Below, piece by piece: positions 7,822-36,625 of a DNA stretch of 37,702 bases (positions are counted from its first letter, which is position 1; each line of letters begins with the position of its first letter). Both the position numbers and the translations under genes were made by a program. Below the pieces are notes generated by a model that searched no databases, was not told where the DNA came from, and saw nothing but the letters and a program-made list of their open reading frames with translations. This DNA comes from a virus (Duplodnaviria > Heunggongvirae > Uroviricota > Caudoviricetes). The stretch lies in IMG/VR virus record IMGVR_UViG_2681813232_000007. One strand, written 5' to 3'.

Positions 7822-8250
7822 CGTTGGCCCCGCTTCTCTGAATCGCTTTATACCGCCATTCCAGCACTTCGGTCAGCGGCATAACGTCAGTAACGGATGG
7901 CGGCCAGTGAAAAATGGTGGCGATATCTGCCACCAGATCGTCAACCGTCAGGCTGTCGGTAAACCGGCAAGCACCGACTTCTTCAACAAAAAAGTGACAA
8001 CCTCAACCGACATGGCAGTGAGATCTGCCGGGTCCATCTCTGCAATTTCCTGTGCAGTCAGTGCCGGACTGGAGATGCGGGGGATCACGGTCATCATCGC
8101 GTTTACATCCATATCCATAATGGCCTGCAGGCGTGTACCGCGCAGCGCACCGGACTGCGGTTTACGCAGCACAATTTCGGTGATTTCTGTTTTACCGCGC
8201 TTGATGGGGGTATCCAGTTGAATGGTCTTTTCAGTCTGCTTATCGCTCAT
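7814..8250 (-). CDS. E': E+E' tail chaperone produced by programmed -1 frameshift
   Basis: minus-strand TTTTTTG at 7987-7993 inside E; hand translation of the -1 frame continues open (FFVEEVGACRF...RSGANDE) to a TGA at 7814-7816 that overlaps the T start codon (GATGAGTGA). Confidence 0.75.
7948..8250 (-). CDS. E: tail assembly chaperone E
   Basis: 100-aa ORF upstream of T; contains the T6G slippery site near its 3' end. Confidence 0.85.
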   Translation of the reverse strand: MSDKQTEKTIQLDTPIKRGKTEITEIVLRKPQSGALRGTRLQAIMDMDVNAMMTVIPRISSPALTAQEIAEMDPADLTAMSVEVVTFLLKKSVLAGLPTA

Positions 8251-8304: not shown

Positions 8305-8820
8305 TCAGAGGCCGAGGGCGTTGCGGTGCGCTTCCATCAGGTCCACACCGTCCACAATTTCCACCATGTTGATAAGGTCCACTTCATAGAGCACCTCACC
8401 ATTGATGGTCAGCTTCGCGTAGCTGTTGGTACTGGTCACTTTGGTGGTGTTGCTTTCGCCCGTCTTCCACTCGCCGGAATCCACTTCTTTGTGACGTCCA
8501 CGCACGACAAGCTCCACGGCCTGCACTTCCCCGGTATCGTCACGCTGAATAGAGCCGGTAAAGCGCAGCTGGATGCCATCCACCGTGGCTTTACCCATCT
8601 GTTTAAACAGCAGCAATTCAGTACCACCAATGGAAAATTCTGTGTCCAGCGCACAGTCATCAAGCCCCAGATCCACATCCACCGCACCCGGCATTCCGCC
8701 GCCGCGATACTTCTCATATTTGCGGGTAAATTTCGGCAGCGTCAGCGACTCAACGATCCCCTGCCAGTTGTTCCCGTCGTTAAACAGGTTCAGGTGTTTT
8801 AATTTGCGTGGTAAAGCCAT
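8305..8820 (-). CDS. FII: tail tube protein FII
   Basis: 171 aa, size and position match P2 FII. Confidence 0.88.
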   Translation of the reverse strand: MALPRKLKHLNLFNDGNNWQGIVESLTLPKFTRKYEKYRGGGMPGAVDVDLGLDDCALDTEFSIGGTELLLFKQMGKATVDGIQLRFTGSIQRDDTGEVQAVELVVRGRHKEVDSGEWKTGESNTTKVTSTNSYAKLTINGEVLYEVDLINMVEIVDGVDLMEAHRNALGL

Positions 8821-15886: not shown

Positions 15887-17146
15887 ATGTTTAGATTATC
15901 TAGTGTCAAGATTGAAGGTTTTTGGGGAAGACTAAATGCATCATGTTCATTTAATGAAGATGTAAATATTATTATTGGTCGAAATGGGACCGGTAAAACA
16001 ACCTTTATGAATATTCTTCACTCAGTTCTGGCATTAGAACTCGAATCACTAAATGAGAATAGTTTTGATAATGTAACAATAAAAATAAAAGAAGGAAGCA
16101 AAACTAAAACAATAAAAGTTGTGAGTAAATTTGACATAACTAAAGCTTTGCCTACGTTTGAATATACAATTTCTAGAAAGAAATATATTATCAGATCCTT
16201 TGAAGATCGTAGACTACCTATATATATGAGGAGAAAATATCAGGAAGACGTTGAAAAACTTAAGTTAGAGTTAGATAAATTAGTTGCTTTATCTTCTCTA
16301 TCAGTTTACCGACTTAGAAGCGGTGAAGATTTTGAAATCAGAGACAAATATGGCTCAAAATTAATCAACCCTGTTGATTACCGATTAGAACAATTATTGC
16401 AGAACCTAACAAAATATCAACTTTATTTATCACAAAGAGCTCGTGATGTTTCTGCAATATTACAGAAAGAGGTTCTTGCTTCTATTCTTTATAGTAAAGA
16501 AGATGGTATCGATGACACATTTAACTTTTCTTTTGATAAAGAAAAAGAACGTAGAAATTTAATAGCTGCATATTCTCAGCTTGGAGCTTTTGATAGTGAT
16601 GTCAGAAAGAAGATTAACTTTCACGTTGAATCTATTGCCAAAACATTTGAAGAATTACGACTTGCAGAAAAAAATAACAGAAATATTTTAAATGTAGATT
16701 ACAGATCATTTGAGGCATTACGAAAGACGCAAAGAATTATAAAGATGTCTTTAAAATCCGAGGAGAAAATAAAAAACATATTTCTTCCTATAAATCTATT
16801 TTTAGAAACATTACATGAGTTCATAACCGATAAAAAATTTAATTTTATCTCCGGTGAGCTAGTAATAGAAAACGAGCATGGGCCGATTAGCCATAGTAAT
16901 TTATCGTCTGGTGAAAAACAGCTATTAATTCTTTTTATTGAAACTTTGCTACAGCAAAACAAACCTTTCATCTATCTTACTGATGAACCAGAATTATCGC
17001 TACATATTGCATGGCAACGAAAAATAATACCTGCAATCAAACAACTTAATCCTAATGCGCAAATTATCGCCGCTACGCATTCACCAGAAGTGGCTTCTAA
17101 ATATCGAAATGCAATCTTTGATATGGAGAAATTGGTTCATGGATGA
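15887..17146 (+). CDS. ABC-type ATPase, candidate anti-phage protein (AriA/AbiLi-like)
   Basis: 419 aa; Walker A GRNGTGKTT (residues 31-39), signature-like LSSGEKQ, Walker B-like FIYLTDEPELSLH; AAGGA Shine-Dalgarno upstream; strongly AT-rich compared with flanking phage genes. Confidence 0.7.
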   Translation: MFRLSSVKIEGFWGRLNASCSFNEDVNIIIGRNGTGKTTFMNILHSVLALELESLNENSFDNVTIKIKEGSKTKTIKVVSKFDITKALPTFEYTISRKKYIIRSFEDRRLPIYMRRKYQEDVEKLKLELDKLVALSSLSVYRLRSGEDFEIRDKYGSKLINPVDYRLEQLLQNLTKYQLYLSQRARDVSAILQKEVLASILYSKEDGIDDTFNFSFDKEKERRNLIAAYSQLGAFDSDVRKKINFHVESIAKTFEELRLAEKNNRNILNVDYRSFEALRKTQRIIKMSLKSEEKIKNIFLPINLFLETLHEFITDKKFNFISGELVIENEHGPISHSNLSSGEKQLLILFIETLLQQNKPFIYLTDEPELSLHIAWQRKIIPAIKQLNPNAQIIAATHSPEVASKYRNAIFDMEKLVHG

Positions 17147-17990
17147 TTTCCATTATTCTGCCGAAGCAGAAAATGTAATGAATTTATTTTACCAAGCTGA
17201 AGCCATGGTTTATGTTGAAGGCCCAGATGATATTTGCTTTTGGGAAATCATCTTTAATAAAGCTAGTTCATTAAAGGTTGAAATCAAAGATGTTGGCGGC
17301 TGTGAAGAATTAAAAAAATATATTGATAGAGTTACTGATGAAGATCTTCAAATTATAATTGCATGTGATGCAGACTTCACTACATTTGAAAATGAGGAAA
17401 ACGCTGATAGTCGCATTGTAAAAACTTATGGGCACTCCATCGAAAACACGTTTATTGACAAAACAGGCATATATAAGGCAATAAAAACTCTAGGAAAATT
17501 ACCTCAAAAGATAATGAACGATGTCAACGTCGATTCTTGGACAGAAGACTTTTATACCAAAATGGAACCCCTAATAAAACTTGATATATACAATCATATT
17601 TATAGAAAAGGCATTTCAGTTATTGGTGACAGTGCAGATCGTTTCATGAAATCTAGAAAATCAAATGAAATTTGCGAGCAAAAAATCACGAGTTACAAAA
17701 ACACCATCATTGAAAAATTAGGTGTGGAACCAGATAACATCGATTCATCTTTCAAATCAAAATCGATAGAATACAGAAAGTGGCTTAGAGGTCATTTTCT
17801 TTTTTCTGCAGTACATAGGTACATTAGCACAACTGCAGAAAAAAATGGAAAAAAAGTATCCTTATCATATGAATCATTATATTCCAATTTAATGAATACA
17901 TTTGAATCCAATTTTACCAATACTCATATTGAGTTTAATCATTACCACGAAAAAATTAAAGCCATAAATATGCCACACGAAATGAAATAA
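17139..17990 (+). CDS. DUF4435/TOPRIM-like putative nuclease, candidate anti-phage effector (AriB/AbiLii-like)
   Basis: start set at MDDFHY (ATG at 17139) overlapping the upstream stop as ATGGATGA; conserved acidic motifs YVEGPDD and IIACDADF consistent with a TOPRIM Glu plus DxD; AT-rich. Confidence 0.65.
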   Translation: MDDFHYSAEAENVMNLFYQAEAMVYVEGPDDICFWEIIFNKASSLKVEIKDVGGCEELKKYIDRVTDEDLQIIIACDADFTTFENEENADSRIVKTYGHSIENTFIDKTGIYKAIKTLGKLPQKIMNDVNVDSWTEDFYTKMEPLIKLDIYNHIYRKGISVIGDSADRFMKSRKSNEICEQKITSYKNTIIEKLGVEPDNIDSSFKSKSIEYRKWLRGHFLFSAVHRYISTTAEKNGKKVSLSYESLYSNLMNTFESNFTNTHIEFNHYHEKIKAINMPHEMK

Positions 17991-26814: not shown

Positions 26815-27969
26815 TCAGCTTATTTGACCTAATAATTCTTCCGCATATTTTTTATCACTATCCATCCGTTGCTGAACAGCATCCCTAAGATGCTCTTTCA
26901 ACTTATCAGGATAATTTTTACATGCATCAATCAATTTTGTTCGTAAAAGCTTAGCACCATTTACAATGGTGGCATAAGCTAAAGCATCAGCTAACTCCTT
27001 AACTTTCACATCATCAGTAATGATAGAAGGGATTGAAAAAACGTAATATTTCGCAACATAATTTTGCGTATACCAACTATCATATAACAATCCAATTAAA
27101 GCATCACCAAGATCACCTCTTCTTTTAAATTTGCTACCAAATGTATTACCCCATGTTCCTATAGCTCCTTTGGTCGCATCAGAATAGAAATCCAAATATC
27201 CTTTTTTGCACTCTTCGATGATTATATTTTCCATTCTAATTAAAACATCATCAGGAAGATTTCTCCATGCGCTCGGCTTAATTATTCTAAATACATTAGC
27301 AAACTCAACATTATTGCTAGCCTTGCGTAACTCATCACCTAGCAACCGCATTGCGGCTTTTTCTTCCTCTCCTGAAAAGCGTTGGTTTATTGCTTTGAAT
27401 ATAGAATCAATTTCCTTGGTTGGCCTTTCATTAAAGCGAGAAATTAAACTTTGGAAAAAATCTAGTAGTTTTTTTTCTGGAATTTGTGATATTAAAGCTT
27501 CTGCATAATCAGAATTATTTACAAAGTGAACCTCATAAATTCTTTCAAGAATTGCTGTGTAATCGAACTCAGCAACATCTCTTTTTAAATACTTAATAAA
27601 AGTATCCAACATGATCAATATTCTCATGCAGGAATCTTCTGTATCAGGGAAATTGTCATGTGTCCTTGGATTTCTTATACACTGATAGTAGCCTCTTAAT
27701 AGTGCTTCAAATCCGCGCTGTTCGTCCTGCTCTGATACAGATTGAAGACTATTAATTTGGATTCTAGGTGATTGTCCACCCAAAACAGTACCAACAAGCT
27801 GAGCCCCATCCCCTTCACATTGCCCTTTTTCACGCAGCAAAGTTGTTAGATATTTGGTTCCTGCAAGTATTGCATCCGAAAATTGGTTGTTTTCCAGCCT
27901 ATTACCAATCGCTTCAACTAATTCCGCATCGAAATTATTTGTATTAAAGTTATTTTTTACAAACATCAC
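26815..27969 (-). CDS. orphan cargo protein with N-terminal HEPN-like RNxxxH motif, candidate abortive-infection RNase
   Basis: 384 aa, AT-rich; motif IRNPRTH (R99-H104; codons 27658-27675); GGGGAG Shine-Dalgarno upstream of the ATG; sits between the portal gene and the cos-like site. Confidence 0.6.
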   Translation of the reverse strand: MMFVKNNFNTNNFDAELVEAIGNRLENNQFSDAILAGTKYLTTLLREKGQCEGDGAQLVGTVLGGQSPRIQINSLQSVSEQDEQRGFEALLRGYYQCIRNPRTHDNFPDTEDSCMRILIMLDTFIKYLKRDVAEFDYTAILERIYEVHFVNNSDYAEALISQIPEKKLLDFFQSLISRFNERPTKEIDSIFKAINQRFSGEEEKAAMRLLGDELRKASNNVEFANVFRIIKPSAWRNLPDDVLIRMENIIIEECKKGYLDFYSDATKGAIGTWGNTFGSKFKRRGDLGDALIGLLYDSWYTQNYVAKYYVFSIPSIITDDVKVKELADALAYATIVNGAKLLRTKLIDACKNYPDKLKEHLRDAVQQRMDSDKKYAEELLGQIS

Positions 27970-28071: not shown

Positions 28072-28116
28072 TGCCCGCTTTATGTAGTGGTTTTCATGCA
28101 CCTGCATGATCTACGC

Positions 28117-28142
28117 AAAAGCCCGCCAGTTCTGGCGGGCCT
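28117..28142 (-). terminator. intrinsic terminator of the tum/dinI-like operon
   Basis: perfect hairpin gcccgccag-ttc-tggcgggc (28121-28140) followed on the minus strand by TTTTG. Confidence 0.7.
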
Positions 28143-28275
28143 TAGCAAAAACGATCCTCAAACGATCATGCGATCTCATGCGGCATAGACATGCACTACA
28201 GAGCTAACGCCTCGCAAGGGCTCGTTGTTCAACCTTGCTGACGCCAGAAGCAAGTTCAGACGCCAGCAACGTTTC

Positions 28276-28509
28276 TTAATGCAGCCAGCTGTCGTCTTCC
28301 CACACCTTCTGCATAATTTTCATCACTTGTTTTCTTTCTTCGTCCAGTTGCAGTCCGGTTAGTTCCACACCGTTAGAGCTACCTTTGCGAATGCGAATTA
28401 CCGTTTTGGGATACAGGGGGCGCAGATTGCGGTAAAGCTCGGATTCAAGGGCGTCCAGGGTAGACTGGCTAATCTTCTGCTCTTTATCGATCATTATTTC
28501 AATGCGCAT
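28276..28509 (-). CDS. DinI-family protein (C-terminal module of a split Tum-like antirepressor)
   Basis: start set at MRIEIMIDKEQ (ATG at 28509, GAGGTG upstream); 77 aa, alignable by eye to E. coli DinI (MRIEV...WESADDW versus MRIEIM...WEDDSW). Confidence 0.8.
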   Translation of the reverse strand: MRIEIMIDKEQKISQSTLDALESELYRNLRPLYPKTVIRIRKGSSNGVELTGLQLDEERKQVMKIMQKVWEDDSWLH

Positions 28510-28519
28510 AAAAGTCACC

Positions 28520-28708
28520 TCAGCTGATGACATCCATTGAGCGGTTGTATTCGTGGGTTCTGATTTTTGCCATGAGTTCATCAGTCAATTCAGAAACCCA
28601 CTGCAGAGCCAGCCCCTTCTCTTCATCACTACACTCACTAGCCGCTACAAGCTTAAGAAAAAAATCAATGCGCTGGAGCTTCAAAGACTCCAAAAAATAG
28701 TCCTGCAT
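28520..28708 (-). CDS. small protein co-transcribed with the dinI-like gene (possible N-terminal module of a Tum-like antirepressor)
   Basis: start set at MQDYFLES (ATG at 28708, AGGAGG upstream); 62 aa; lies directly downstream of the LexA box. Confidence 0.55.
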   Translation of the reverse strand: MQDYFLESLKLQRIDFFLKLVAASECSDEEKGLALQWVSELTDELMAKIRTHEYNRSMDVIS

Positions 28709-28751
28709 CTTTCCTCCTATGACACCACACGCAATACTGTACGCATAACCA

Positions 28752-28767
28752 CTGTTTATATTTACAG
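28752..28767 (-). promoter_or_regulatory. LexA operator (SOS box) overlapping the promoter of the tum/dinI-like operon
   Basis: CTGT-N8-ACAG: cACTGTTTATATTTACAGta matches the TACTGTATATATATACAGTA consensus at 17/20; minus-strand -35 TTTACA (28788-28793) and -10 TATACT (28766-28771) with 16-nt spacer. Confidence 0.8.
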
Positions 28768-28861
28768 TATATAATAATCTTACTGATGTAAAACGTTTTT
28801 TTACGTTCATCAGCCTGATATGCCTGGTATTATAAAGAGCACGAATTGTTAACCCGCGTAA

Positions 28862-31273
28862 TTAATACAGGTTCCGCCACTGATCATCTTCTTGCAAACG
28901 CTGGTTCCGATAGAAGATACGCAGGCCTGCTCCTGACGGAATACTGCCTCCGCGAAGGAGTAAATCGACCTCTTTCTCGCTGCCATCAAATCCTCTGGAC
29001 TTCAGCTCATACACGAGCTGCAGTCGCTGATGGTCTGTAATTCGCTGTTTGTAGTCTTTACGCCGTTTCGGTTTCACCAGGCGTAACCTTGCAGCCAGTT
29101 CCCGGCGCTCTTTTTTGTTCATACTGTGCAGGTAATCGTGCAACTCCTTGTCATCCATGCTGGTAATGTCCGTTCTGGGGTCCCCATCAGCTGATTTATC
29201 TTTCTCCTGTTGGTTCAAATTTTCAGCAAGGGGACAGTTATTGCCACGAGTCCAAGGGGCGCAAGCGCCCTGGGCTGCCGCCTCCTGAACGTCAACGGCT
29301 TTACGAACCATTTTCCACTTCACTGCATGAGTGCAGATCTTGCCCTCTGCAATGGGTGACCAGATGCCATAAATACGAATGCCGTGATCGCCATAGGCGG
29401 TCGGCTCTTCGTTGATTTCATAAGCGGTTCTGATGAGGTGATATTTACGGGGAACCAGTACGCCGCCCTGCTTCATGATGTAGGTGGCAAAACAACCAGC
29501 ATCAGCAGCAGCCAGAATGGCATCAAGACGCGGGTTATCCAGTACCGGCGCACCTGCTTTTTTGTCACCCTGTTGCCTTGCCGCCTGACCAGCCAGCAAG
29601 CGAAGTTCACGGTAAGCCTGACGCCCCGGAATACCAAAGAAGCGGAATTGCTGAACACGATGCAGAGACGCCCAGGCATTCACGTATTCAGCGTTATCAC
29701 GCAGAGATTTACCCGTTTCCTTGCTGATCTCGCCAGCCAGACCACGACCGTCAATGTTCTTACTGATATATTTCGCGATGTAGCTTGTCGGCGTTCCTTT
29801 GCGCGGGTTAATCAACTCAGACTTAAAGCGCGGCCCAGTGTTATTGCCCAGCTCCTCGCGGTCTTCACGGATGGCAAACTTACGCAGTAATGCAGTGATG
29901 GCACGGCGGTCTTTTTTGCGCATGAAACACAACAGGTGCCAGTGAACTGTGCCATCATGATGCGGCTCAGCCACCCGCACGCCATACCAGCGCAACCCGG
30001 CTTTGTGCATCGCCTTACGAAATGCAGCAAACATGCCGACCAGATAATCGCTGCTTTGTCTTACCGTCGCGTTTGTCCAGGTCGGGTTTGGTCTGCCGTT
30101 ATTTAGCGTGGAATGGAAACGCGACGGACAGGTGATAGTGTAGAAAACGGCGCAGTCACCGCGCATTTCCGCGATAAGCTCCAGACCTTTAACACAGGCC
30201 ATCATCTCATTGCGGCGATGCGCAGGGTTGCTGCTGCTGGCGTTTACCACATCCTCCATGTCCAGCGTGTCGCCGTCTTCGTTCACCAGTTCATGAGAAC
30301 GGAAAAACTCCAGCGACTTACGGCGCTGCTCACGTTTATGCATCACGGCTTCATAGCTGACATAAGGAGATGCTTTTTTGCTGACCAGGCAAACAGCGCG
30401 CAACTGCTCTTCCCGCCATTCGCAACGCATCTTCCATAATTTCCGATACCACCAGTCGGCGCACAACATACGCGCCAGCGAACCCGGAATGAGTTCATAG
30501 GGCACGGGTTTACGGCGGTTTCTTTTCCGACGGAGTTGCTCAAACGCAGGTGGGATGACATCCAGACGCAGGGTTTCCGCTGCCACCTTTTCCCATGTCT
30601 TGCGGATTTCTTCTGGCTTAACGTCATCGGTGGCATACAAATCACCACAAGCTGCATCAAGGCACATACTCATATGCGCAGCTACCAGGGTGGACAGGCG
30701 TTTCACCTGATCCTGACTCATTTCAGGCAGGATCAGCAGGCCGTCCAGCCCTTCATGGCTTGCCATAAAGCGAAAAGATGCAGATAGCTGACTGTCGCGT
30801 ACATGCTCCAGTCGTTCCAGACATGGCTTAATCGTCTCACGTAAATAGCGGGAATAAGCCTTTGGCCTGCCCAGGCTGCTGAAGTATTCAATACGTTGCA
30901 TCAGCGGCTTGCTGATATTGGAAGGCTGGGCGTTGACGTCCGCCAGAATGACCATGTCTGAATTAAAACGCTGCTGCTCATGCGCCAGCTTTGCCCGGCT
31001 AATGAGCTTATCCTGCTCCATTTCGCGCTGGACAGGATCACGTGATTCATTAAAGAAATAACGCTCCCAGACCTGATCACTCAGTGCCTCGCGGCGCAAC
31101 TGTTCCTGCTCGTTATCGGCAGCGTACAGAGTGATCAGGTTTGAAAGCGTAGAAACCGGCGCAACTTCCGCCGGGTCCAGATAAGGGTTAATGGCCTTTT
31201 TCGGGCTGTTCCATGAGAATGCTGCGGCAGCCTCGTTAAAGCCGCAGCACTTGTTCATATCGGCATGACTCAT
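28862..31273 (-). CDS. A: replication initiation protein A (rolling-circle nicking endonuclease)
   Basis: 803 aa, size and position match P2/186 gpA; tandem His motif WHLLCF; start overlaps dam stop. Confidence 0.88.
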
Positions 31274-34273: not shown

Positions 34274-34870
34274 ATGTCAACATCAAAGTACCCAAGTGAG
34301 ATCAAAATAAATCCCAATAAAGGTGGTAAGGCTGCGATTGAGCGATTAGTCGAAGCCTATGGCTTTACGACACGACAGGCTTTAGCTGATCACTTGGAAG
34401 TATCAAAAAGCACACTAGCGAACAGGTATTTGCGGGATACATTTCCTGCTGACTGGATAATCCAATGTGCTCTTGAAACAGGAACCTCCCTCAAATGGTT
34501 AACTACCGGACAAGGCCTTAAGCAAAGCTCGCTGACAGCAGCTACAGAAGAGCTTGTTAAGTTTCGCCTTGCCGCAGGCAAAATGATTGAAGACGGTTCA
34601 TATGTCTTCGATTCATCATTTCTTCCTGCAAACCTTTCATCACCAATTGTTGTTCAGGATGGACTCGTCACATACATTTGTGATCAAAAATTTTCTGAAG
34701 TACTTGATGGAAACTGGTTAATCAATATCGACGGAACCTATTCCATTCGAAAAATCACAAGGCTTCCTAAAGGAATGATTAAAATTACAACAGCAGAGAA
34801 TAGCTTTGAATGTGCATTTTCTGATATTGAAGTGGTTGCTTGTATAAGAAGTACAATAGTCTCGAATTAA
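34274..34870 (+). CDS. cI: CI immunity repressor (186 CI type)
   Basis: 198 aa; N-terminal HTH and motifs EAYGF, CALETG..L.WL.TG.G shared with 186 CI by recall. Confidence 0.8.
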   Translation: MSTSKYPSEIKINPNKGGKAAIERLVEAYGFTTRQALADHLEVSKSTLANRYLRDTFPADWIIQCALETGTSLKWLTTGQGLKQSSLTAATEELVKFRLAAGKMIEDGSYVFDSSFLPANLSSPIVVQDGLVTYICDQKFSEVLDGNWLINIDGTYSIRKITRLPKGMIKITTAENSFECAFSDIEVVACIRSTIVSN

Positions 34871-34890: not shown

Positions 34891-36567
34891 ATGAATTCAT
34901 TTGCCATCGTTATACTCTTATTAGCATTTCTCGCCCCTGTTCTAGCTGTAATATTATTTAAACAAAGTAAAAAACACAAAGCGGCTATAGATAACCTGAC
35001 AGCTAACAACATAGCCCTTTCTAACCAACTGATTGAAAATCAAGAAAAACTAGCACAGACCGTACGAGAATTATCAGAGCTTGAAGGGCGAGCAGCACCA
35101 TTGTGGCAATACGAAGAATTGCACAGCGCAGTAATGGATGCAGAGAATAAGATAAAAAATGCGGACTCAATAGCCAAGCAAAAAATAGATGAAGCCCAAA
35201 TTAAGGCGGCTAAAACAGTAAACGAAGCAAATTATCAAGCTCAGATGACAATAAGCAACGCTAATAGCGAAGCTATAGCAATCACCAAAGACGCTCGCGA
35301 TGCACGCCTGAAAGCCAAAGAACGTCTTGATAATGCTAATAATAAAGCAAATGAGCTAATCTCAAATGCTAATGACAATGCAGTAAAAATTATTTCTGAT
35401 GCAGAAGAAAGAGCAAAGGAGATTGCTGGTTCAGCATATGAAGCTAAAGAGTTTGCAGAAAAATATGAAGCAGTTGCAAAATCAATGAAAAATAAAATTG
35501 AAGGTTATGGTGATGAATGGATCATCCCTAACCGTAGTGTACTTGATGAGCTGGCAGAAAATTATGAATTTACAGATGCAGGCAAGGAATTACAAAAAGC
35601 CAGAGAGTTAACCAAATCATTAATAAAAACTAATAAAGCTGCTTCGTGTGATTATGTTGAGCAAAACAGGCGTAATACTGCCATAAACTTTGTTTTGGAT
35701 GCCTTCAATGGAAGAGTTGACAGTATTTTATCAAAAGTCAAACACAACAATTTTGGAAAACTTTCCCAAGAAATAAAAGATGCATTTCAACTAGTAAATT
35801 ACAATGGCTCTGCCTTTAGGTCCGCAAAAATAAGTGACATCTATCTTCAGGCAAGACTCAACGAGCTAAAATGGGGTGTAGCAGTTAATGAAATTATGCT
35901 CGAAGAAAAAGAAGAGCAAAGAAGGATTAAAGAACAGCTTCGTGAAGAGGAAAGAGCTCGTAGAGAATATGAAAAAGCGATAAAAGAAGCTGAAAAAGAA
36001 GAAAAAGCTATTCAGCAAGCTATAAATAAAGCAACGAAAGAACTTATGCTTGCAAATGAAGAACAACGCTTAGCTTTAGAGCAAAAAATAGCTGAACTAC
36101 AGTTAAAATATGAAGAAGCTGAAGCTAAAAATCAACGAGCTATTTCTATGGCTCAACAAACCAGATCAGGCCACGTCTATATCATTAGTAATATTGGTTC
36201 ATTTGGCGAAGATGTATATAAAATTGGAATGACACGCCGCCTTGAACCACTTGATCGTGTTCGTGAACTCGGAGATGCTAGTGTTCCTTTTTCGTTCGAT
36301 GTTCATGCGATGATTTATAGTGATGATGCACCATCATTAGAAAACCATCTGCATAAAGTTTTCAACGAAAAGCAGGTCAATAAAATTAACTCACGAAAAG
36401 AGTTTTTTAACGTAAATTTAAAAGAAATCAAATCAGTTATTGAAGACATGAACATCAACGCCCACTGGACAATGTTTGCAGAGGCGAAAGAATATAGAGA
36501 GTCTCTATCTATTGAGCAGGAGCGCAAAGCAGCCACTTCCGCCAACGATGAACTACATGTTGCTTAG
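34891..36567 (+). CDS. membrane-anchored coiled-coil protein with C-terminal GIY-YIG-like (T5orf172-type) domain; candidate anti-phage cargo
   Basis: 558 aa, AT-rich; N-terminal transmembrane helix (FAIVILLLAFLAPVLAVILF), long Lys/Glu/Ala-rich helical region, C-terminal GHVYIISN...YKIGMTRRLEPLDRVREL; inserted between cI and int. Confidence 0.65.
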   Translation: MNSFAIVILLLAFLAPVLAVILFKQSKKHKAAIDNLTANNIALSNQLIENQEKLAQTVRELSELEGRAAPLWQYEELHSAVMDAENKIKNADSIAKQKIDEAQIKAAKTVNEANYQAQMTISNANSEAIAITKDARDARLKAKERLDNANNKANELISNANDNAVKIISDAEERAKEIAGSAYEAKEFAEKYEAVAKSMKNKIEGYGDEWIIPNRSVLDELAENYEFTDAGKELQKARELTKSLIKTNKAASCDYVEQNRRNTAINFVLDAFNGRVDSILSKVKHNNFGKLSQEIKDAFQLVNYNGSAFRSAKISDIYLQARLNELKWGVAVNEIMLEEKEEQRRIKEQLREEERARREYEKAIKEAEKEEKAIQQAINKATKELMLANEEQRLALEQKIAELQLKYEEAEAKNQRAISMAQQTRSGHVYIISNIGSFGEDVYKIGMTRRLEPLDRVRELGDASVPFSFDVHAMIYSDDAPSLENHLHKVFNEKQVNKINSRKEFFNVNLKEIKSVIEDMNINAHWTMFAEAKEYRESLSIEQERKAATSANDELHVA

Positions 36568-36625
36568 CAATGTATGTTTCATAGTAATCACACATTGATT
36601 ACTGGTTACATATACAGTTAAATTT

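Follow-up and report, generated by a model that had tools for sequence, protein, structure and literature searches.

Two small minus-strand genes just downstream of replication gene A, in a 37,702-nucleotide viral sequence (IMG/VR record IMGVR_UViG_2681813232_000007, the whole of which we call the window), very probably make up the SOS induction unit of a Fels-2/DuoHS-type P2-like (Peduoviridae) prophage, a two-cistron equivalent of p95-tum in phage 186. The upstream gene (ORF1), of the tumA type, encodes the presumed antirepressor of the CI repressor, and the downstream gene (ORF2) encodes a DinI-like protein. The sequence features, homologies, and conservation described below are established by our comparisons, and the features are collected in Table 1.

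Table 1. Features of the SOS operon and its surroundings (window coordinates; a dot marks features given without a strand).
Feature	Position	Strand	Basis or remark
Intrinsic-terminator-like hairpin, 11-bp G+C-rich stem then UUUU	28114..28143	-	RNA fold, sequence
Stem-loop just past the dinI-like stop, without a U tract	28231..28273	-	RNA fold
dinI-like (tumB-type) gene, 77 aa (ORF2)	28276..28509	-	Pfam DinI, 186 Tum similarity
tumA-type gene, 62 aa, presumed CI antirepressor (ORF1)	28520..28708	-	phrog_698, hhalign, Fels-2/DuoHS identity
Shine-Dalgarno AGGAGG for ORF1	28713..28718	-	Sequence; kept in Fels-2-clade relatives
SOS box 2	28735..28754	.	CAGTGGTTATGCGTACAGTA, degenerate, 13/20; starts 15 bp after box 1, overlapping
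SOS (LexA) box 1	28750..28769	.	TACTGTAAATATAAACAGTG, 17/20 to consensus
-10 hexamer TACTGT, left arm of SOS box 1	28764..28769	-	Sequence, conservation, same as annotated 186 p95 -10
-35 hexamer TTTACA (SOS promoter, counterpart of 186 p95)	28787..28792	-	Sequence, conservation
Replication gene A	28862-31273	-	Followed by a 153-bp gap, then ORF1 and ORF2
186-type CI repressor, presumed antirepressor target	34274..34870	+	Pfam Phage_CI_repr E 8e-32, Phage_CI_C E 3.5e-27

The window and a region of the E. coli HS genome are 96-98% identical where they align, and the alignment takes in the host genes at the left end of the window (ybjL, ybjM, and grxA). The window therefore represents a prophage like DuoHS, the P2-like prophage of E. 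coli HS, at the same ybjL site. Host DNA occupies positions 1-2900, with ybjM at 288-665 and ybjL at 935-2620. The differences from DuoHS lie in the tail fibre, in three cargo insertions, and in the immunity region. One insertion, absent from DuoHS and situated among tail and baseplate genes, consists of two overlapping opposite-strand ORFs (15887-17990, plus strand) that encode a 419-aa AAA ATPase (PADLOC AriA, E 5.7e-40) and a 311-aa DUF4435 protein (AriB, E 2.8e-24); by these profile matches the pair looks like PARIS-type anti-phage defence cargo. Also absent from DuoHS is a 558-aa ORF between cI and int (34891-36567, plus strand) that matches the PD-Lambda-1 defence protein (PADLOC E 3e-120; Pfam DUF4041 and T5orf172/MUG113) and is called a “chromosome segregation ATPase” in the deposited phage record.

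The initial annotation placed a near-consensus LexA box over the -10 hexamer of a minus-strand promoter, and this is borne out by the sequence. Box 1 reads TACTGTAAATATAAACAGTG on the minus strand (28769-28750; CACTGTTTATATTTACAGTA on the plus strand), matches the LexA consensus TACTGTATATATATACAGTA at 17 of 20 positions, the top such site within the window, and supplies the -10 hexamer TACTGT as its left arm. It is also the window's only instance of a perfect CTGT-N8-ACAG core. By chance, 0.44 such cores are expected per window, and at least one occurred in 32 of 100 shuffles; taken alone, the core is weak evidence for a LexA site. Box 1 is credible because it falls within the 153 bp that separate gene A from ORF1, because its position is conserved in relatives, and because a second, overlapping box is adjacent to it. 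The second-best LexA-like site in the window, TACTGGTTACATATACAGTT (36600-36619), matches the consensus at 16 of 20 positions with one core mismatch, and about 12.6 one-mismatch cores are expected per window by chance. It is bounded on one side by the stop codon of the PD-Lambda-1 ORF and on the other by a terminator-like hairpin (GCCCTC-N6-GAGGGC, then TTTTT) directly adjoining the start codon of int. The site may have arisen by chance or may have been retained from the setting in which the cargo gene previously stood.

We compared the promoter region across 13 loci that share this layout and span several Peduoviridae genera: vB_EcoM-813R9 (the window's twin phage), 186, PSP3, Fels-2, SopEPhi, Cartapus, five Klebsiella phages, ESSI2_ev015, and ESSI-2. 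A perfect CTGT-N8-ACAG box occupies the same place in 12 of the 13, the distant ESSI-2, PSP3, and 186 among them, and the remaining one carries a single mismatch. Upstream of the tumA-type gene, the succession of TT(T/C)ACA (TTCCCA in PSP3), 17-18 bp, and TACTGT is kept throughout, while the spacer sequence varies; in the window, the -35 hexamer (28792-28787) and the -10 hexamer (28769-28764) are 17 bp apart. This conserved footprint is the main evidence for a functional promoter and operator. A generic promoter and terminator scanner run on the window did not report the SOS promoter, because TACTGT fits TATAAT at only three of six positions; the -10 hexamer is weak, which tells against the SOS reading. 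In ESSI2_ev015 (8501-8713) and ESSI-2 (7971-8138), the LexA box accompanies a tumA-type gene whose product is 41-49% identical to ORF1, and the ESSI-2 gene carries no annotation.

The operator had initially been described as a single LexA box. Box 1 stands, but the count does not, as a second SOS box overlaps it on the downstream side. The two boxes are offset by 15 bp, in a colicin-type register. Box 2 is more degenerate in the window than in Fels-2, where it matches the LexA consensus at 15 of 20 positions rather than 13. A degenerate box 15 bp downstream of the first is a feature of the Fels-2 clade, to which the window belongs, and only a single SOS box is found in the 186, PSP3, and ESSI-2 types. 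When the operator was compared by blastn with plasmids, many small Col-type plasmids matched, and in the three that we inspected, directly on the plasmid sequences, the two-box register is identical to that of the window. Two of these matches adjoin, on the upstream side, the start of a bacteriocin gene, namely pesticin (pPCP1) and a colicin-like tRNase bacteriocin (Klebsiella), and the third falls within an unannotated stretch of a ColE-like E. coli plasmid. By analogy with such operators, the double box would probably hold the promoter more tightly and let induction set in later than the single box does in 186, and LexA presumably binds the window's two boxes cooperatively.

ORF1 runs from an ATG at 28708 to a stop codon at 28522-28520 and encodes an acidic protein (pI 4.6) for which AlphaFold2 gives a confident two-helix hairpin (mean pLDDT 88.8). 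A Foldseek search of the PDB with this model returned only generic helical hairpins with E>1, a PDB sequence search found no solved relative, and neither Pfam nor PADLOC holds a family that it matches. By BLASTP, ORF1 matched neither 186 Tum nor PSP3 TumA. However, PSP3 TumA also failed to match the N-terminal half of 186 Tum by BLASTP, although GenBank annotates these two as similar, and BLASTP is therefore not a fair test for these proteins, which are so short and divergent that profile methods are needed. Against PHROG profiles, ORF1 matched phrog_698 (E 3.6e-38), phrog_8554 (2.4e-8), and phrog_1993 (2e-3), and the first 70 residues of 186 Tum matched the same three families at the same positions (phrog_1993, 1.5e-23; phrog_8554, 3.4e-12; phrog_698, 5.9e-6). 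We then compared the two families with hhalign, using one alignment of 36 diverse relatives of ORF1, taken from a full HMMER scan, and another of 27 relatives of the 186 Tum N-terminal half. They align from the start codon, over residues 1-44 of both, with 97% probability and an E value of 8.1e-11. By profile comparison, ORF1 is thus homologous to about the first 44 residues of 186 Tum, in agreement with the initial proposal that it is the equivalent of the Tum N-terminal half.

ORF1 is identical at 61 of 62 residues to Fels-2 STM2728, and equally at 61 of 62 to DuoHS tum (ECHS_RS04495), the 62-aa gene directly upstream of the DinI-like gene in that prophage. Like other Tum-type antirepressor genes, it lies just downstream of replication gene A behind a promoter with a LexA box at its -10 hexamer, in a phage that carries a 186-type CI as presumed target. 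In every annotated genome record that we fetched, the 62-aa gene is labelled as hypothetical or unknown, with the exception of one that has “levan regulatory domain protein”. Some public records (MK416009 QBP08078) start it at an upstream ATG, giving 96 aa, and name it “levan regulatory (domain) protein”. Neither label reflects the homology to Tum that the profiles indicate.

We considered whether the real product might be that 96-aa ORF (28520-28810), such as the “levan regulatory domain protein”, so that the LexA-like sequence would be coding rather than operator. The in-frame ATG at 28810 does open such a frame, and its start or name is used in some database entries. However, the conserved -35 hexamer would then lie downstream of the start of the extension, and the ATG at 28708 has a strong AGGAGG in front of it. 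Divergent members of the family begin at the MxD position with extensions that are not conserved, and the protein is 62 aa long in RefSeq and in the Fels-2, Cartapus, and HS annotations. We find this possibility scarcely credible, and we rejected the extended ORF together with its levan regulatory label.

The second gene had been assigned to the DinI family, which Pfam supports: ORF2 matches DinI (PF06183) over profile positions 1-63 of 63, with an E value of 6.6e-23 and 81.3 bits against a cutoff of 24.2. It starts at an ATG at 28509, 10 nt past the ORF1 stop, and ends at 28278-28276. Its product is 41% identical to residues 71-145 of 186 Tum. The initial annotation would have been refuted by an upstream ORF with no relation to the N-terminal half of Tum, and the profile comparison showed the contrary. 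ORF2 is 100% identical (77/77) both to Fels-2 STM2726.1 and to the DinI-like protein of E. coli HS, and 78% identical to PSP3 TumB. Among solved structures, E. coli DinI (1GHH) is closest to it in sequence, and DinI is also all that a PDB sequence search with 186 Tum returned.

The SOS transcript likely ends at the hairpin at 28114-28143, which the generic scanner did not report, and the operon would therefore be a two-cistron unit of roughly 650 nt. Just past this terminator lies a minus-strand gene (26815-27969) for a protein of 384 aa that carries a Hypoth_Ymh domain at its N terminus (Pfam E 2.9e-23) and has weaker matches to PADLOC PD-Lambda-3_B and Aga_HEPN. This gene probably has expression signals of its own. 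The slot that it fills is occupied by orf97 in 186 and by other cargo in other relatives, and the protein is probably a defence or abortive-infection moron.

That the equivalent of Tum is divided between two cistrons, as initially noted, is correct, but the split is no peculiarity of this prophage. PSP3 has the same arrangement in its tumA and tumB genes, annotated in GenBank as “similar to 5' end 186 tum; UV induction of prophage” and “similar to dinI and 3' end of 186 tum”, respectively, and so does Fels-2, which is published as having a “split tum” and described as regulated by an antirepressor mechanism (Lemire et al. 2011). When database relatives of the 186 Tum N-terminal half were ranked by score, only nine of the top 120 carried any DinI sequence, and the rest were stand-alone proteins of 60-100 aa. 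The split thus looks like the commoner state among relatives, with the reservation that many of them come from fragmentary contigs.

Separation into two products raises the question of which one acts on CI. It could be that the DinI-like protein is the antirepressor, or that both products together form a non-covalent full-length Tum, with ORF1 alone insufficient. In favour of this, 186 combines both parts in a single polypeptide of 146 aa, which is the protein used for the biochemical work. In PSP3, however, antirepressor activity was reported for the upstream gene (Lemire et al. 2011), and loss of the upstream gene alone blocks induction of DuoHS (PMC12055606). Furthermore, ESSI-2 and ESSI2_ev015 have the LexA box and the tumA-type gene but no dinI-like gene annotated downstream, and the 186 annotation lists a separate DinI-like product, translated from a GTG inside tum and said to modulate induction. 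We regard both versions of this alternative as very unlikely on this evidence, which may still accommodate a supporting role for the DinI-like protein. Several observations are in keeping with an essential role for the upstream tumA-type gene: Tum of 186 binds CI and thereby keeps it off its operator (cited in Lemire et al. 2011), the separate DinI-like product of 186 is annotated as a modulator, and the ESSI-2 types have no annotated dinI. For the window's own DinI-like protein, we infer an accessory role in the operon.

The immunity region had been described as carrying a 186-type CI, Apl, and CII. Two of these assignments are supported: CI is 32% identical to 186 CI and has the two expected Pfam domains, and CII is 70% identical to its 186 counterpart, as is Fil at 60%. 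Apl is not, beyond its position; no similarity to 186 Apl was found in the window, and Pfam returned nothing for the 73-aa gene that takes the Apl/Cox position. This gene is nearly identical to its DuoHS counterpart and differs from Fels-2 Apl. At E<=0.01, Pfam found nothing in CI besides Phage_CI_repr and Phage_CI_C, and in particular no Peptidase_S24 autocleavage domain. Because CI has no such domain, RecA-dependent cleavage of the lambda type appears unlikely. The CI frames of PSP3, Kp4860-7, and ST11-OXA245phi3.1 have a tandem double N-terminal helix-turn-helix with one C-terminal domain, and a single copy of the N-terminal domain is present in the window, 186, Fels-2, and DuoHS.

The action of TumA on the window's own CI is something that we infer, as this CI is only 55% identical to that of DuoHS and 41.5% to that of Fels-2. 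This leads to a further alternative, in which the operon is SOS-induced in a recombinant prophage whose CI, swapped in with the PD-Lambda-1 cargo, does not respond to the resident TumA, so that the operon only modulates the host SOS response or induces co-resident P2-like prophages in trans. The divergence of CI is in line with such a swap, as is the fact that the immunity region is one of the few segments of the window that do not align with DuoHS; trans-acting antirepressors are moreover documented for Gifsy phages (Lemire et al. 2011). Against it, the window, Cartapus, and three Klebsiella phages encode 100% identical TumA proteins alongside five different CIs. These CIs are 43-56% identical overall, and their N-terminal domains are still 61-79% identical, compared with 26-46% for the C-terminal domains. 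Altogether, TumA proteins that are identical or 97-98% identical occur alongside at least six different CIs, among which overall identity is 41-56%. DuoHS and Fels-2 make the same point: their TumA proteins are nearly identical and their CIs only 41% identical (69% in the N-terminal domain, 35% in the C-terminal domain), yet induction depends on tum and on cleavable LexA in DuoHS, and Fels-2 is described as antirepressor-regulated, so that tolerance of divergence in CI looks like the rule. We therefore consider an unresponsive, swapped-in CI unlikely.

These pairings indicate that the A-tumA-dinI block and the immunity region assort independently. Their simplest reading is that Fels-2-type TumA has broad specificity as an antirepressor and recognises a conserved surface of the N-terminal DNA-binding domain of 186-type CI proteins rather than an immunity-specific surface, a proposal for which we find the case evenly balanced; alternatively, some recombinants, possibly including the window's prophage, may no longer be inducible. 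If TumA is broadly specific, a single TumA made during the SOS response could also induce heteroimmune P2-like prophages that share the cell, in a manner likened to Gifsy crosstalk (Lemire et al.), and the gene A-tum block and the immunity block could recombine freely with inducibility kept.

Returning to the reading of the operon as an SOS induction unit, its course would be as follows. The best-supported account follows the scheme of 186, with the two functions placed on separate polypeptides. In the lysogen, LexA would silence the operon by occupying the two overlapping SOS boxes, which extend over the -10 hexamer and the start region. DNA damage would activate RecA, LexA would cleave itself, and the de-repressed promoter would yield the transcript that ends at the distal hairpin. 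Its first product, the acidic helical hairpin, would bind the 186-type CI non-covalently and sequester it, which would free the early lytic promoter and send the prophage into lytic growth. The second product, as a DinI-family accessory, would probably modulate RecA filaments and with them the strength or duration of the SOS response.

The locus is widespread. An 801-bp segment spanning it was found in 1144 of 5426 complete E. coli genomes, BL21 included, with at least 80% of the locus covered in 735, and in 67 phage records. The operon is thus very common, and it is already known, from genetic dissection in E. coli HS and from descriptions of Fels-2 and PSP3. What the analysis offers is a prediction, useful for annotating the 62-aa gene, that SOS inducibility of this E. 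coli prophage is based on an antirepressor and not on repressor cleavage. Two small points of interest are what the double SOS box, with its likeness to colicin operators, does for the timing or tightness of induction compared with 186, and how a single TumA sequence can serve with highly divergent CIs.

Comparison with known systems places the window closest to DuoHS, in which an in-frame tum deletion or a lexA(Ind-) allele each abolishes mitomycin-C-induced lysis and virion production (Nat Microbiol 2025, PMC12055606). DuoHS has the same promoter, tandem SOS boxes, position after gene A, and integration site, and the two operons differ by one TumA residue and two operator bases, both substitutions falling in the box 2 spacer. 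The CI partner differs, being only 55% identical, as does the cargo flanking the operon and the immunity region. The operon of Fels-2 from Salmonella Typhimurium LT2 (STM2728/STM2726.1) has the same operator with a better box 2 (15/20); its host genus is different, its CI is 41.5% identical to that of the window, and its gene A is 89% identical.

The more distant relatives share the design but not all of its parts. In PSP3, as in the window, two cistrons lie under a LexA box and the downstream one is DinI-like, but PSP3 TumA belongs to the 186-type subfamily, with about 22% identity to ORF1 in a multiple alignment, and a single SOS box (19/20 to consensus) takes the place of the window's two. 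In 186, p95 is annotated as TTCACA, 18 bp, and TACTGT, with a LexA site starting from the -10 hexamer, downstream of gene A, which is the design seen in the window; the N-terminal and DinI-like parts are fused in the 146-aa Tum rather than encoded by two cistrons, and tum is followed by orf97 where the window has the Hypoth_Ymh gene. Outside phages, the colicin and pesticin operators have the same CTGT-N8-(A/C)CAGTGG-N8-ACAG architecture, and identity to the operators of Col-type plasmids reaches 83-92% over 35-43 nt. The genes regulated by these operators are unrelated to the window's tumA-type gene, and in the bacteriocin promoters the -10 hexamer lies upstream of box 1, whereas in the window box 1 itself provides it.
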